Part shown: positions 23,579 through 35,142 of the stretch, piece by piece
Layout: every line of letters begins with the position of its first letter
Position numbering within the stretch: the first letter of the stretch is position 1
Source: Candidatus Sungiibacteriota bacterium
GTDB lineage: Bacteria > Patescibacteriota > Minisyncoccia > Sungbacterales > HO2-52-23
Direction of reading: 5' to 3'
DNA: 38,509 bases
Assembly: GCA_016181585.1 (NCBI GenBank)
Contig: JACOYX010000018.1
Span: 1-38,509 of the forward strand
Position numbers and translations under genes: made by a program
Notes under the pieces: model-generated
The model's database searches: none
What the model saw: only the letters and a program-made list of their open reading frames with translations
What the model was told of the DNA's origin: nothing

Positions 23579-23636
23579 TTTTATATTCTCACCACCTAAT
23601 CGCGCGATCGCGCGATTAGGTGGTGAGAATATAAAA
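23579..23636. repeat. Perfect 58-bp palindrome
   Basis: ttttatattctcaccacctaatcgcgcga|tcgcgcgattaggtggtgagaatataaaa. Confidence 0.95.
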
Positions 23637-24036: not shown

Positions 24037-24173
24037 CCTTGCCTTCTGTAAAACTCTTTCTGTTTTTTCCGGTTGTACCCCTTATTGCCCTTTGGTGATC
24101 CTTGCGGACCGCCAGTTTTTTGCGGCAAAGGAATTCTGCCGAGCTCAATTTTCCGTTTGGCTTCTTTCCTCAT
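24030..24173 (-). CDS. 47-aa basic peptide MRKEAKRKIELGRIPLPQKTGGPQGSPKGNKGYNRKKQKEFYRRQGW
   Basis: Manually translated (below the ORF-track cutoff); AAGGAG / AAAGG RBS; its end overlaps the next ATG. Confidence 0.6.
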   Translation of the reverse strand: MRKEAKRKIELGRIPLPQKTGGPQGSPKGNKGYNRKKQKEFYRRQGW

Positions 24174-24213
24174 CCTTTTCTCTTCTCCTTTTACTAGTTT
24201 TCAAAAATCTATC

Positions 24214-24275
24214 CTCCCATCAAAATTTCCGATTGTTCAGAATCTTTGATGGATGCTCAAGATTGTTTCTTGAGC
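24214..24275 (-). repeat. Double-hairpin array element, copy 6
   Basis: Minus strand GCTCAAGA-aacaa-TCTTGAGC ATCCATCAAA..TTTGATGGGAG, enclosed by AAAAATCT/AGATTTTT. Confidence 0.8.
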
Positions 24276-24313
24276 AGATTTTTTCATCTCCATTGTTTAA
24301 AAAAAGTCACAGA

Positions 24314-24580
24314 CTACTGCTTCCGGAAACCGAGAATGGCGGGAGTTTTTTGAACTGAAGATTTTACTGTCTCAAACTCCCGTTCCAGTAAACTCCACTC
24401 CTCGTCCGAAAGTTCGACGGTTGCGTCGATGTCGGGATATTTTTCTGGTGGAAACTTGTCGATGTTCCGTGCACCGATTTTGTTGAGTTTTTGGAAGAAC
24501 TCGAGTTGCTCTTCCATCCACTCGTGATAAGGCGGCAGTTCTTCCTCTACCATTTTCTTAAAATCACGAACGGTTCCCAT
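24314..24580 (-). CDS. Small acidic hypothetical protein
   Basis: 88 aa; AAGGAGG RBS. Confidence 0.75.
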   Translation of the reverse strand: MGTVRDFKKMVEEELPPYHEWMEEQLEFFQKLNKIGARNIDKFPPEKYPDIDATVELSDEEWSLLEREFETVKSSVQKTPAILGFRKQ

Positions 24581-24620
24581 GATTCCTCCTTTTTATTTTC
24601 CGTAAAGATCTTTAGGGTTT

Positions 24621-24679
24621 CCCCCTTTCAGAAATTTGAACTATTCAAATCTCTGAAAGGGAGGCGAGTCTTTTCTCGC
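24621..24679 (-). repeat. Double-hairpin array element, copy 5 (variant junction)
   Basis: GCGAG-aaaaga-CTCGC CTCCCTTTCAGAGATTTGAA-tag-TTCAAATTTCTGAAAGGGGG. Confidence 0.65.
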
Positions 24680-24984
24680 GCTCCGGTTTTTTGAAAGGGT
24701 TTGGGGCTCCCGGATAATATGCGTGCTCTCGCACTGCATCAGCGAAATGCTGTGGACATGTCTCCGTCGAGCGATGACAATAGCCCAATTATCCGAGGAG
24801 TTGTTCCCCTTACATTGCACCCTTGGGCAACGCACGCGGCTTGGCATTTCCGCGCGTGGGTTTTGGTGAGTGTCTTATATGACCCGGCTTTTATTATATG
24901 TTCAAGAGCTGCCAACTCTCTCCCATATACGCCCAAAACCGGGTGACACCACCTCTCGAGGGACCCATCGACCCCCGAACCCTT

Positions 24985-25197
24985 CTACTCGACAGGGCCG
25001 CCGCATTTGTGACCGCAATGATGACCAAATGCTTTTCCCTGCCGGCGGAGCAGCCGCTTCACTTTGCGTTCATCACGCTTGGTGAGTTTTAACGGCTTGC
25101 CCCTCGCAACCGCCATATCCTGGTAGCAGTCATAGCGGAACGACACGGAGATTTTTCTTCCCCGGTACCAAACCGATTCACCGCAATACCATGCCAT
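24985..25197 (-). CDS. Small basic Cys/His-containing hypothetical protein
   Basis: 70 aa; AAGGAGG RBS; upstream TGTTCTTTAA motif. Confidence 0.7.
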   Translation of the reverse strand: MAWYCGESVWYRGRKISVSFRYDCYQDMAVARGKPLKLTKRDERKVKRLLRRQGKAFGHHCGHKCGGPVE

Positions 25198-25447
25198 GGC
25201 GATCCTCCTTTTTCAAAATTTTAAATAAAATTAAAGAACAACGGACGAGAGTGTGGCGTGGCGGCGCCGTACTCCCTGGGGACACCGCGACTTGCGTCGC
25301 GTGTCCGCGGGCGATAATTTCATCATTTTTATATTTATCGCCTAGCCCCATTGATTTGCTACCGCCATAACTCCCCGAAGGGATTTCAAGTAATCCATGA
25401 TGAGCGCGGTTATTCAGGGGTTTGGTCCGCGCTACGATTGGGAACTT

Positions 25448-25527
25448 CTCCCATCAAAATCTTTATCTTTCCTTTTACAAAAGAAAAACTTTTATGGAAG
25501 CCCGAACTTTGATTTATTCGTTCGGGC
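25448..25527 (-). repeat. Double-hairpin array element, copy 4
   Basis: GCCCGAAC-N12-GTTCGGGC TTCCATAAAAG..TTTGATGGGAG; 22 bp at 25441-25462 identical to 26001-26022. Confidence 0.8.
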
Positions 25528-25639
25528 ACTTTTGCGCAATACGGTCTCGCTCATGCTTATAAGAATATGGCTAGTATTCTTTTATTTCACATGAATCCCC
25601 GTTCACGTGCCTTGCGTTGGCACGGGAGGTTTCGAAACT

Positions 25640-25936
25640 CTAGTATTCCGATTCCAGAGTTTCGGCAATCTTTCGATGCAATTCTCCACTTGCAATCATG
25701 CTTTTAGGCAGATTACAAAGGAATGCTCCGAGAGGATTGCATGACCCATCACATCTACCCCTTACAATGCTCGTAAGATGTTGTGCGTGGACCACGCGCT
25801 CTTCCTCCATATAAATGACGTCAAGCGAGTCTGCGTGGAAATCACCATTGCATCCGTGATTCCACTGGAGCTTTCCGTCATCTTCCGTCATACCATGTTC
25901 AGTGGTCTGACGATAAGTTCGGAATTTTCCTTGCAT
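25640..25936 (-). CDS. Small hypothetical protein (Cys/His-containing)
   Basis: 98 aa; AAGGGGGTG RBS. Confidence 0.7.
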   Translation of the reverse strand: MQGKFRTYRQTTEHGMTEDDGKLQWNHGCNGDFHADSLDVIYMEEERVVHAQHLTSIVRGRCDGSCNPLGAFLCNLPKSMIASGELHRKIAETLESEY

Positions 25937-26007
25937 GGTTCACCCCCTTTCTTTCTCCTGCGAGCCACCGCAGGATTGGTTTTGGTAAAAAAGAATTTTC
26001 GGAACTT

Positions 26008-26076
26008 CTCCCATCAAAATCTCTTAATGATTAAGAAACTTTGATGGGAGTCCGATGATCTTGTGAATCATCGGAC
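26008..26076 (-). repeat. Double-hairpin array element, copy 3
   Basis: GTCCGATGATT-cacaa-GATCATCGGAC TCCCATCAAAGTTTCTTAAT-c-ATTAAGAGATTTTGATGGGAG. Confidence 0.85.
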
Positions 26077-26090
26077 AAACTAGCAGTGTT

Positions 26091-26294
26091 TTACTCAGGG
26101 ATTTTGTTTGCCACCGCCGCGAGACGGTCGGCTTCCGCCCGGAGTATGTTCACTGCTTCTACCAACGCGACTTTGCAGCCACGCTGGTCGGGGTACACAT
26201 TCAAACCGCATCCTGCCTCCTGCGCTTTATGTAAGGCATTGAGCGTGTTACGTACCCCACTGAAAATTTCATGTACTAAACCTTCATTAACCAT
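26091..26294 (-). CDS. Small hypothetical protein (67 aa, MVNEGLVHEIF...)
   Basis: AAGGAGG RBS directly before ATG 26294. Confidence 0.7.
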   Translation of the reverse strand: MVNEGLVHEIFSGVRNTLNALHKAQEAGCGLNVYPDQRGCKVALVEAVNILRAEADRLAAVANKIPE

Positions 26295-26684
26295 CTTCTC
26301 CTCCTTTTGGTCCTCTTTTTGGTTGGCCAATGGTTTGTTTAAATTTTGTTTTGTATAAAAGAACTTTGGAATGGCCAGCGGAGCCGCAAAAAATACGCGG
26401 ACGCTGGCTATAAAATATGCGGCTAGGGCATCTCCGTTACTGGTCTCGCACAGGCTACCTCCTTGCCCGAGCTCCAGTTCCCACTAAAACCTTTGCGGCC
26501 GCTTACGCAAAGGGGTTTCCCAAGTATCCATCGGGGCAGCGATGGATCGCTCCCGTGGGAGTGCTTGGGATTCCGGCCTCAAAATGCCGGAAGGAGATGT
26601 TTCGCTTACCGGTTCTTACTGAAAGAACCGCTTGCGTCTCGAGGCCTCGTCCCCGAGAATAAGCAAAAACGTTGGGTTTCAGAT

Positions 26685-26774
26685 CTCCCATCGAAGCAAG
26701 AGAGCGTAACGAATAATTATATAAGGTTCGCTCTCGCGCTTCGATGGAAGCAGAAGGCGCTGGTCGCTTTCTGC
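26685..26774 (-). repeat. Double-hairpin array element, copy 2
   Basis: GCAGAAAGCG-accag-CGCCTTCTGC TTCCATCGAAGC..GAGAGCG..CGCTCTC..GCTTCGATGGGAG. Confidence 0.85.
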
Positions 26775-26787
26775 TGTTGCGGGGTTT

Positions 26788-26949
26788 TTACTTACTACGC
26801 GGGTCCTCTGCCTCCCGCGCCTCCAGCCAGCTTTCGCGGCTGGAGTGGACAACACCCCGATTGTCGGTGACATATTGATAATCGACGGGGCGGACCCCCT
26901 CAACGATCATCGCTAGCCGCTCCTCCAACGTAATTGTGGTGTTTTCCAT
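26788..26949 (-). CDS. Small hypothetical protein (53 aa, MENTTITLEERL...)
   Basis: AAGGAGG RBS before ATG 26949. Confidence 0.65.
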   Translation of the reverse strand: MENTTITLEERLAMIVEGVRPVDYQYVTDNRGVVHSSRESWLEAREAEDPRSK

Positions 26950-26993
26950 TTTCCTTCCTCCTTTTCTAAGAACATAGAGAGATTGTAAATTTT

Positions 26994-27115
26994 CTCCCAC
27001 CGAAGTAGCGACTGGTTGTTAGCCACTAGAAGTTAGTAATTTTTTAGTTTACTAGTGGCTAGGAACTAGTTGCTAGTCGCTATTTCGGTGGAAGGGGATA
27101 GAATTACCCATCCCT
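26994..27115 (-). repeat. Double-hairpin array element, copy 1 (promoter-proximal, longest stem)
   Basis: GGGAT..ATCCC CTTCCACCGAAATAGCGACT..TAGCCACTAG..CTAGTGGCTA..AGTCGCTACTTCGGTGGGAG. Confidence 0.8.
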
Positions 27116-27170
27116 CAATCCCCACCTCCTTCTTAAAATGTTTAAGTTTTTCCCAAACCGTTATGCCTAC

Positions 27171-27198
27171 ATTATACACAATCTATATAATTTGTCAA
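27171..27198 (-). promoter_or_regulatory. Consensus sigma70 promoter driving the small-ORF/hairpin unit
   Basis: Minus strand TTGACA-16 bp-TATAAT. Confidence 0.8.
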
Positions 27199-27439
27199 GT
27201 AGCGATGACATAATGAAGAAGTAATCCCTAAAAAATGGCTTATATAAAGCAAAAATTAGAGATAAATATTTTTATCTCAAGTAAAACATTTTATCTTTTT
27301 AAAACCGAAGATAATTAAAAATTAACTTACTCTTCACCAAAGGTGCATCGGATCTTTCCATTTTATAAGTAAGAAATAGTGTGAGAGGTATGGGCAAATA
27401 TCTAGACTGGCGCACTTCAGGCTTGAATTTTACATTTAC

Positions 27440-27468
27440 TTGACACCACATGTATTTATGTATATAAT
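27440..27468 (+). promoter_or_regulatory. Consensus sigma70 promoter (divergent)
   Basis: TTGACA-17 bp-TATAAT. Confidence 0.85.
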
Positions 27469-27473
27469 ATGGG

Positions 27474-27740
27474 TAGATGCCGCGCACTAAGGGCGGCATC
27501 TAACTGGTTCTTTCTGGAGGGTTCTTGAGTAAATGTCTTCTCTACTGGATTCCTGCGCATGGCAGGAATAACAGAAGAGGGTGCTCAAGGAATTGGTGAG
27601 CGAGGGCGTGTTCTCGACCACTTAAGTCCGACCGGACGGGTTTAGGACATGCTCAAAAAGTTTTTTCAAGCTCGCCATTTTTTTGTTCTCCTGTATGGCG
27701 AACAAAAAAAGAACCCCCTCCGATTCAGAGAGGAGGGATA
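27474..27740 (+). ncRNA. Putative structured non-coding RNA, family unknown
   Basis: Follows a perfect promoter; no ORF >=60 aa; multiple nested stems. Confidence 0.5.
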
Positions 27741-27881
27741 ATATAATGGGCGGCATGTAATTTTTTGGTCCCTTTTATATTTTTGGAAAATTTAAAAAAA
27801 AAGAAAAACGACGGAAAAAGAAAACAAAAACAAATTGGTATAATTAAAAGGGGACTACGCAAACGCGTACCCCCTTTATTT

Positions 27882-28634
27882 TTAATCAGTGGGTCTTATT
27901 AATTTCCAAAAAAGCATGAAAAGACTTCGAAAAGAATCCGCAACGCTCGAATGCTGGATAATAGTGCCTGATGGTTTACCTTTAAGGGCGGCAATTCCTA
28001 TCTTGTCATCATAGATGGTGAGATCGATATTAATGGGCAAATCCTGTGCTGACACATATTTTGATTCACGAAGCGATGCATTATCTTTTTCTTTCAAGAA
28101 GTCGCCGCGAGAAGAGGTATAGATAAGCGATGAATGGATGCCGTGTTTTACCCTTTCTGAAATATAAGTACTCGGATGTTCCGGAAAAATATCAAGCACG
28201 TTGTCCGCGGAGGCAATGGAATATATATGTTTTTCCTTTGTTGATAAAAAATCTTCCTGCATTCTCAAAAGCCCTTCTCTCCCTTCAAAAAAACGCACTT
28301 GCGGTTTTGAGTCTGAAAGGCGAAAGAGCGCCTCGAGTTCGGGGAGGAACTTGGCAAGTTCCTCTTTTTTGTGTTCGGCGGCTTTGCGTTCTTCTTCGAT
28401 GACGGACAGGAGCTGGTTCGGATCCTCCGCGATGAAAAATTGTTTTTTGCCTTTGGTCTGCGTGCTTGCGAGACCAAGTTTTTTCAAGCGTTCGATTTGG
28501 ACATAGGCGGTAGGGCGGTTGATTTCCGCTTTGGTGGAAATCTGGAGCATGGTCGAGGGACCGAGCTCGAGCATGGCAAGATATACCCGCGCCTCGTTTT
28601 CCGAGAGGCCCATTTGTCGGAGTTGATTAAGCAT
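27882..28634 (-). CDS. TrmB-family transcriptional regulator
   Basis: L..MGLSENEARVYLAMLELG wHTH; INRPTAY..IERL...GL; PQVRFFEGREGL; TIYDDKI. Confidence 0.92.
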   Translation of the reverse strand: MLNQLRQMGLSENEARVYLAMLELGPSTMLQISTKAEINRPTAYVQIERLKKLGLASTQTKGKKQFFIAEDPNQLLSVIEEERKAAEHKKEELAKFLPELEALFRLSDSKPQVRFFEGREGLLRMQEDFLSTKEKHIYSIASADNVLDIFPEHPSTYISERVKHGIHSSLIYTSSRGDFLKEKDNASLRESKYVSAQDLPINIDLTIYDDKIGIAALKGKPSGTIIQHSSVADSFRSLFMLFWKLIRPTD

Positions 28635-28822
28635 GTTGGATTTACTATAGTTTGAGTATACCATATAAAAATGGAAAGCGAAAATATAAAAACAAACTTT
28701 TAAACTTTAAACTTTAGGACTTACGCGTTTGAAAAGGAATACTTTTTTATATAGATTGCCGAGTCCAGATAGTAATCGTGACTCGCAATGACATCAAACG
28801 CGTAAGTCCTAACTATGTAGGC

Positions 28823-34646: not shown

Positions 34647-34772
34647 AAGAAAAATTTTAAAATGAAAATATCAAAATGCAAATTGGCGTTTCGCGCCAAT
34701 TCGCATTTTACATCGGCATTTTTAAGGTTAAGAGCCTGCTCAAGTATACCAATCTTTCAAAATAGAGCTATA

Positions 34773-34801
34773 TTGACATATATTTAAATTTGGTGTATAA
34801 T
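34773..34801 (+). promoter_or_regulatory. Consensus sigma70 promoter
   Basis: TTGACA-17 bp-TATAAT. Confidence 0.85.
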
Positions 34802-34807
34802 TAACGT

Positions 34808-35142
34808 GTCTTTGAAATATATCATTTTTTTATATTCGGGGCTTTGAAACAGCCTTACCGACCCTCCTCGGTATGGTTTGTCTCTCTCTTTCTGGGAGTT
34901 TTTAAAGACTAAAGACATCTTGCATAATAAATTTCGTTACGAAATTTATTATGCAAGATGTCTTAGATTGGGAAGTCTTTTTGTTAGCATGAAATCAAGT
35001 AAGATATAGTTGTTCAGAAGCGGACATAAGCTTTCAGAAAGAGAGAGGCTAGGGGCCTCGAATATAAGGAAAGGATTGCTTGACGGCTTCAGCCTCCAAT
35101 TGGGGCAAAAGTAACGAACACAAAGTTCGTTGCTTTTTTTTG
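34808..35142 (+). ncRNA. Putative structured non-coding RNA, family unknown
   Basis: Perfect promoter; long-range stems 34831-45/35052-66 and 34883-900/35029-46; terminator 35107-35142; no credible ORF. Confidence 0.55.
34912..34964. repeat. 53-bp perfect palindrome, distant family A mini-element
   Basis: AAGACATCTTGCATAATAAATTTCGT-T-ACGAAATTTATTATGCAAGATGTCTT; same length and centre as 32597-32649. Confidence 0.85.

Follow-up and report, generated by a model that had tools for sequence, protein, structure and literature searches.

An ORF-less cassette of a TrmB-linked array in a Sungbacteria-type bacterium probably carries a strongly folded RNA

Between two small open reading frames of a Sungbacteria-type bacterium lies a stretch of about 310 nucleotides (26371-26680) that is filled with GC-rich stems, and the question raised by this locus is what such a stretch could encode in the middle of an array of short genes. 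The window, by which we mean the whole 38,509-nt stretch of DNA that was analysed, is an entire contig of a 0.87-Mb, 86%-complete CPR genome from groundwater metagenomes; the four DNA sequencing runs, all from a single groundwater study, contain the same strain. A first-pass annotation, made from the letters of the sequence, had proposed a novel non-coding RNA or a ribozyme-like cargo. Our analysis suggests that these 310 bases most likely form a cassette that lacks a protein gene and encodes a strongly folded RNA outside the known families, and that the stretch is probably the cargo of an ORF-less cassette in a TrmB-linked, promoter-driven array of this CPR bacterium.

Direct reading of the sequence recovered all five stems that the first-pass annotation had named, namely atggccagcg/cgctggctat (26371-26380 with 26402-26411), cctttgcg/cgcaaagg (26490-26497 with 26506-26513), tcccaagta/tgcttggga (26518-26526 with 26562-26570), which encloses tccatcg/cgatgga (26527-26533 with 26540-26546), ttccggc/gccggaa (26571-26577 with 26586-26592) and cggttctt/aagaaccg (26611-26618 with 26624-26631). 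Its expectation that the domain would fold better than dinucleotide shuffles was borne out as well. The folding energy of the 310 nt is -131.0 kcal/mol on the plus strand and -131.2 kcal/mol on the minus strand, the means of the shuffles being about -105 and about -104 (z = -4.96 and -4.90, respectively), and none of 100 shuffles equalled the energy of the domain on either strand. When the whole window was scanned, the 310-nt frames over the domain came out among the most over-folded for their GC content, the neighbouring S2 hairpin (see below) contributing to those frames that overlap the domain. The D2 core of the domain (also below) has a z of -3.85 when folded alone.

No Shine-Dalgarno motif was found in the 18 nt upstream of any of the three ORFs that overlap the domain (judged by eye for the plus-strand ORFs), in agreement with the first-pass annotation, which had seen no evident ribosome-binding site. 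All three are absent from a collection of 15 billion proteins in which four neighbouring cassette ORFs are present, a protein search with the 81-aa plus-strand frame gave no candidates, and neither the kept frame nor the ribosome-binding site of a protein-coding cassette was found in the domain. The 147-aa plus-strand frame, searched against 1.84 billion representatives, gave two matches to long proteins, each consisting of 11 short stretches, and these were taken as spurious.

The same annotation had failed to match the domain by eye to RNase P, tmRNA, SRP, an intron or a riboswitch, and models agree: no family of Rfam 15, including ribozymes and 6S, reaches its gathering score with the domain or with its homologue on a metagenome contig, L125 (see below), and known ribozyme and riboswitch models match neither of the two. 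The E-value search of the domain against Rfam admitted matches up to E 10. Its best sub-threshold match for the window is LAGLIDADG-2 (RF03094; 19.1 bits against a cut-off of 94.9, E 0.31), a weak alignment of three consecutive hairpins on the plus strand; being far below the gathering score and missing in the search with L125, it was read as chance. The best match in L125, at 23.7 bits, is to a microRNA model and is placed on the S2 hairpin.

The domain lies within an array (24.2-27.1 kb) of small ORFs, all on the minus strand, with conserved-arm hairpins between them. This hairpin set occurs nowhere else in the genome, and none of the array ORFs has a Pfam or NCBIfam match. A sigma-70-type promoter (TTGACA, 16 nt, TATAAT; 12 of 12 consensus positions) at 27198->27171 on the minus strand is aimed into the array, with a near-identical promoter at the matching position both in L125 and in a further locus, L052, while a second consensus promoter (again 12 of 12) at 27440-27468 on the plus strand points away from it. 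Farther on, at 27882-28664 on the minus strand, lies a gene for a TrmB-like regulator of 260 aa (PF01978, E 2.6e-14). The locus thus combines a TrmB-like neighbour, an inward consensus promoter and two-hairpin spacers between small orphan genes; its cassettes are one-way and promoterless behind a common promoter, and their content differs between relatives.

We considered and rejected a reading of the array as an integron or a CALIN, an integrase-less cluster of attC sites. The core sites of attC are RYYYAAC and GTTRRRY at the repeat ends; in 24100-27200 the motif GTTRRRY occurs twice on the plus strand and not at all on the minus strand, where about 2.9 occurrences per strand are expected, and no occurrence lies at a unit boundary. 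No recombinase was found among the ORFs of 20.1-31.0 kb. The single PF00589 match of the 86%-complete genome is on contig C24, not on the array contig, and this recombinase scores 186, 180 and 168 bits with the XerC, XerD and XerA models, compared with 68 bits for the integron-integrase model, whose cut-off is 265. Having neither IntI nor attC core motifs at its units, the array is neither an integron nor a CALIN.

Read on the minus strand, a unit of the array consists of an S2 hairpin, a cargo and a variable S1 hairpin that abuts the next S2. The base of S2 is conserved, with CTYCCAYCRAA as its 5' arm and TTYGRTGGGAG as its 3' arm. All of the following features lie on the minus strand. The first S2, a long form, occupies 26994-27094 and precedes the cargo of cassette 1, an orphan 67-aa ORF with a strong Shine-Dalgarno motif (26788-26991), at whose position L125 has an unrelated 58-aa ORF. 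The S1 that closes cassette 1 (26751-26775) is about half identical to that of L125, with the fold kept, and the S2 that opens the RNA cassette (26685-26750) is about 88% identical in L125, being co-conserved with the domain. The domain itself comprises D1, a variable peripheral stem (26607-26672; z -3.6 and -4.6), D2, a conserved core of 192 nt (26415-26606), and H1, a 3' hairpin of the S1 type (26371-26411) built in two tiers, with 7-8 pairs in the outer and 4-5 in the inner one.

Downstream of H1, comparison by eye with the unit at 26008-26050 and with the tail of a protein described below, P0008, revealed what looks like a remnant of the next S2 at 26330-26369, in which the 5' arm is recognisable with a loss of 2 nt and the 3' arm is gone. 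This stretch would be a decayed S2 whose loss fused the RNA cassette to the next one, and such decay would explain the AT-rich linker to the next cargo, another orphan 67-aa ORF with a Shine-Dalgarno motif (26091-26294). That ORF found only itself among 5.8 billion proteins; it is followed by an S1 at 26051-26076 and the adjoining S2 at 26008-26050.

The predicted cassette boundary is the S1|S2 junction, because S2 and the domain are conserved in L125 while the preceding S1 has diverged and the preceding ORFs are unrelated, and because a contig of sequencing run X4 matches the window rightwards from 26054 and has other sequence leftwards. Position 26054 is the S1|S2 junction of the unit that follows the RNA cassette. 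The X4 contig hints that the 67-aa cassette is also present in another context. On its minus strand a T-run directly follows S1 at this place, so that S1 would be a terminator there. A second X4 breakpoint was seen at 24681, again with a match only to the right and other sequence to the left.

Some parts of the array depart from this scheme. In its left half, 24620-24670 and 24900-24985 appear by eye to be variant spacers, an example being a hairpin with arms CCTCCCTTTCAGA and its complement that replaces the standard S2, and the cassette grammar is therefore not uniform along the array. The ORF-free stretch before the 70-aa ORF (25198-25446) has a fold that is not significant (z -1.8). Within the long first S2, positions 27047-27086 match other contigs of runs X1, X2 and X4 at less than 90% identity and with unrelated flanks on both sides, which suggests a short dispersed repeat common to other organisms of the community.

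Structured stretches were also seen elsewhere in the window. Immediately left of the array, at 23579-23636, is a perfect palindrome of 29+29 nt with zero spacer, and the frames around it are the most over-folded of the window. The promoter at 27440-27468 drives about 400 nt without an ORF (27440-27880, plus strand) towards the 3' end of the TrmB-like gene; this stretch folds with a z of -7.3, finds no match in Rfam (SorY comes closest, at 20 bits and E 0.12), and parts of it seem, by eye, to be conserved in L125. Finally, an AT-rich gap of 433 nt at 34647-35079, where nested palindromes of great length accompany a perfect promoter-like site, folds with a z of -9.9, yields only microRNA-type hairpin noise in Rfam and may be a foldback mini-transposon.

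A metagenome scan with the S2 pattern resulted in 83 loci, and an nhmmer search with the domain among all fetched loci found one homologue (E 3.9e-41). This homologue, L125, is on a 3,259-nt contig of a related organism that ends inside H1, and its order is a PHP gene, a TrmB-like gene, twin promoters, a first S2, the 58-aa ORF, S1-S2 and the domain. Direct comparison between the two copies shows 93% identity for the core, compared with 72.6% for the TrmB gene, 66.5% for the PHP gene and 73% for the promoter region. Within the core the two copies are offset by indels of 2, 1, 2 and 1 nt, and none of the reading frames runs open through it in both, so that, when a conserved frame is set against conserved pairing, the small non-triplet indels and the missing common frame favour pairing. 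This one homologue keeps the pairing and not a protein frame, as the first-pass annotation would have it for a structured RNA.

On the minus strand, the RNAalifold consensus has 56 pairs in the core and lays D2 out as a long-range closing helix, P1, with four arms, Pa, Pb, Pc and Pd, the second of which forks into Pb1 and Pb2. The core carries 23 substitutions, 15 in unpaired and 8 in paired columns. All eight substitutions in paired columns retain a standard pair and no pair is broken: three pairs, one of P1 and two of Pb2, have both partners replaced, two are changed on one side from C-G to U-G, and the remaining pairs are invariant in the two sequences (51/56). A helix that joins ends about 170 nt apart thereby survives change on both sides. 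The pattern is suggestive of pairing that is kept under change. As controls, 60 of 500 shuffles reached the observed covariation, a test without power when there are two rows, and none of 100,000 random placements of the substitutions left every pair unbroken, a test that is circular because the structure was derived from both sequences. When structures of single sequences were used instead, the placement P on the minus strand was 0.005 with one structure and 0.26 with the other, the plus-strand values being 0.04 and 0.005.

Outside the core, H1 has kept its two-tier shape despite diverged sequence, with -20.9 and -20.2 kcal/mol (z -4.7 and -4.5) in the two genomes. D1 is Y-shaped and 66-70 nt long in the window and a single 31-nt hairpin at the same position in L125, and variation of this sort is typical of peripheral stems. 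Inside the core, two alternative folds of Pb each fit both sequences by eye, and the Pc loop GCGGC could possibly form a pseudoknot with an invariant 3' GCCGC beyond P1, to judge from these two invariant 5-mers, picked out by eye. The Pd loop is invariant as well; on the minus strand it spells AAGGAGGU, which is Shine-Dalgarno-like and precedes a frame of 4 codons, and on the plus strand it reads ACCUCCUU.

Further evidence for an independent cassette comes from a protein record. A spurious minus-frame ORF of L125 is recorded as the 183-aa protein P0008, from a 5,332-nt contig; P0008 is identical over the 145 codons present in L125 and then continues for 38 codons more. These extra codons begin with both S2 arms translated in register, over about 42 nt: the 5' arm is CTTCCACCAAAG, the start of which is visible in the DNA of L125, and about 20 nt after it the 3' arm fits TTTGGTGGGAG. 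With tblastn, the tail peptide aligns to three of the window's S2 units, each match being weak (E 0.07, 1.4 and 2.7). Going by this translation in place of the DNA, S2 would directly follow H1 in the relative, and sequence unlike the window would come after it. With an S2 in that position, H1 would be the S1 of the cassette and the domain would be an ORF-less cassette bounded on both sides. In the window, no intact S2 is found between the domain and the next ORF.

We searched for further copies of the domain. A DNA search of its own genome found only the domain itself; 35 other genomes of the family, searched with the DNA and with a model, R1, built from the window and L125, held no copy (one noise match, E 0.42); and there was none in 150 sampled genomes of the class (model R1) or in 400 sampled genomes of the phylum (DNA search). 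Among the 95 other fetched loci, R1 found nothing besides the two sequences used to build it, and each of two exact words from the core gave 0 matches in viral contigs. Considering that the element is so rare, the high identity of the core could mean recent transfer and not selection.

The type of array, by comparison, is widespread in CPR. An exact scan for the hairpin pattern in 185,579 species genomes resulted in 47 loci, 11 of which (on 9 contigs) have CPR names (Saccharibacteria, Paceibacterota, Zambryskibacteria, Yanofskybacteria, Patescibacteria), and with a relaxed pattern five of these CPR-named loci have arrays of 4-5 units. In three of the six loci scanned with Pfam (L052, L051 and L055), a TrmB-like gene of 252-260 aa flanks the array on the side and in the orientation seen in the window, and L125 also has such a gene. 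At all five TrmB-linked loci, the window included, a near-consensus promoter leads into the array, and in three of the five it belongs to a back-to-back pair. The nearest TrmB homologue within the family, in genome G009 (47% at the amino acid level), has no array beside it, and a lone S2-like hairpin in genome G019 was dismissed as not being part of an array. In loci of gut Clostridia/Eubacteriales (L019, L020, L027, L029, L034, L042, L045, L049, L050, L058 and L059), one perfect palindrome per locus fits the S2 pattern on both strands, and locus L057, on a contig labelled Nanoarchaeota, has an S2-type hairpin together with further right-arm-like motifs.

As to the strand, we are fairly confident that the minus strand is the one transcribed, because the array promoter reads in that direction with no terminator seen before the domain (partly by eye), because the wobble pairs of S2 are asymmetric, and because the sole candidate region for a plus-strand promoter is not conserved in the relative, where S2 replaces its AT-rich stretch. 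U-G wobbles on the minus strand (C-A on the plus strand) are found in the S2 arms of 4/5 units of the window, 2/2 of L125 and 3/4 of L055, which points to a role at the level of the transcript, or of this one strand. The energies of the core (-86.4 plus and -81.1 minus in the window, -82.6 plus and -86.7 minus in L125) choose no strand, and the wobble positions are mixed, with at least one favouring the plus strand. It would follow from a plus-strand origin that the RNA is antisense to the array transcript, possibly acting through the C/U-rich Pd loop ACCUCCUU, which we take to resemble the anti-Shine-Dalgarno end of 16S rRNA. The plus strand does fold as well as the minus strand, two stems have G-U pairs on it that would be A-C on the minus strand (by eye), and a TATAAA box stands 12 nt before H1. 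Yet no promoter passes the scan at this place, where the -35 match is 2/6 by eye and the genuine promoters of the locus are textbook ones; the stretch upstream is an S2 hairpin in the relative; and the two U-G pairs of L125 exist on the minus strand only. We therefore regard a plus-strand RNA as quite unlikely.

The domain could instead be a cis-acting 5' leader (a riboswitch, thermometer or element of translational control) of the 67-aa ORF at 26294->26091, since in the window H1 and the Shine-Dalgarno motif of this ORF are parted only by about 75 nt of AT-rich sequence, Pc with a U-run forms a terminator-like hairpin inside the domain, and two Pb pairings are compatible with both sequences (by eye). 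This reading is quite improbable, given that the relative has a new S2 right after H1 and then different sequence, that the terminator-like hairpin sits in mid-domain and not at the 3' end, and that riboswitch models give no match; the ORF is without relatives, so there is no conserved RNA-gene pair, and neither a conserved downstream gene nor a 3' expression platform was found. We also think it very unlikely that the domain is a dead remnant, whether of a decayed protein cassette or of old spacer hairpins. Decay of the adjacent S2, an H1 that is simply an S1-type hairpin, the rarity of the element and the Shine-Dalgarno-like AAGGAGGU with its 4-codon frame in Pd, which could be the relic of a gene start, would all suit a functionless remnant, but its core would hardly be more conserved than the flanking housekeeping-type genes (93% vs 66-73%), nor would its substitutions avoid or compensate pairs and leave a long-range helix (ends about 170 nt apart) intact through two-sided change. 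The structure might lastly work as folded single-stranded DNA in recombination or replication, as attC sites do, a reading that accommodates both the equal folding of the two strands and the evident exchange of cassettes at the S1|S2 junction. Against it, a multi-arm junction with a long-range closing helix is unlike known recombination hairpins, the units come with neither an integron integrase nor an attC core motif, and the lone tyrosine recombinase is Xer-like and encoded on another contig; we consider a DNA-level role extremely unlikely.

For the ORF-less RNA cassette, which remains our preferred reading, we propose that the domain would be read on the minus strand within the array transcript that starts from the promoter at 27198->27171. 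The RNA would then fold into the variable stem D1, the D2 junction of about 190 nt with its four arms, and a 3' H1 of the S1 type, and would act as a stand-alone structured RNA, distinct both from a protein gene and from a leader of the ORF that follows. Of the flanking hairpins, the long upstream S2 and the downstream S1 would most likely serve as RNA punctuation, that is, as processing sites or protective ends, through which an RNA of about 330 nt may be released or stabilised. Our guess is that this RNA is a protein- or ligand-binding scaffold; a catalyst is less likely. A bolder possibility, which we regard as unlikely, is that D2 represents a new functional RNA class (a catalyst or a specific binder) that is exchanged between ultra-small bacteria as a mobile cassette, by an integrase-free system whose units are delimited and processed at the RNA level by S1|S2. 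The novel non-coding RNA of the first-pass annotation thus stands as far as the strong fold, the lack of an Rfam match, the kept pairing, the lack of a common frame and the bounding hairpins carry it, tempered by a comparison of two sequences and a deduced strand.

Cassette arrays are known as swappable stores of protein genes, and here the cargo seems to be a folded RNA instead, found in CPR, a lineage whose accessory biology is hardly known. Should this RNA prove real and active, it would count as a new RNA family, and regulator-linked arrays would be seen to exchange RNA genes besides small proteins. The S2-cargo-S1 grammar with its S1|S2 boundary was worked out here, and it provides a simple rule for dividing arrays, by which a systematic catalogue of RNA cargo becomes possible. 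The parts of the literature available to us hold no description of TrmB-linked cassette arrays or of the RNA of this domain.

Among known RNAs, the closest parallels are OLE, ROOL, GOLLD and raiA, members of a class of large orphan non-coding RNAs that comparative genomics uncovered in bacteria, all of them included in Rfam. Like them, the domain would form an RNA rich in GC, a few hundred nucleotides long and built of many stems, in which the junctions are conserved and the peripheral stems vary. Unlike them, it is much rarer, with two known copies, and sits in a swappable cassette where they have a fixed locus; it matches none of their models.

Among known cassette systems, the comparison is with integrons, in which ORF-less gene cassettes are known, for example from an oral metagenome (PMC6557892). 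As far as the accessible part of that literature describes them, the likeness extends to a gene-free unit within a one-way array of small, promoterless units served by one upstream promoter, and to neighbouring cassettes that vary between related genomes. Within the same bounds, the array differs from integrons in having no IntI and no attC core sites, and in that its conserved neighbour is a TrmB-like regulator and not a recombinase. Its units are instead bounded by a variable S1 and a conserved S2 with wobbles pointing to RNA, and the cargo of the ORF-less cassette described here, unlike that of its integron counterparts in those sources, appears to be a conserved multi-arm RNA.
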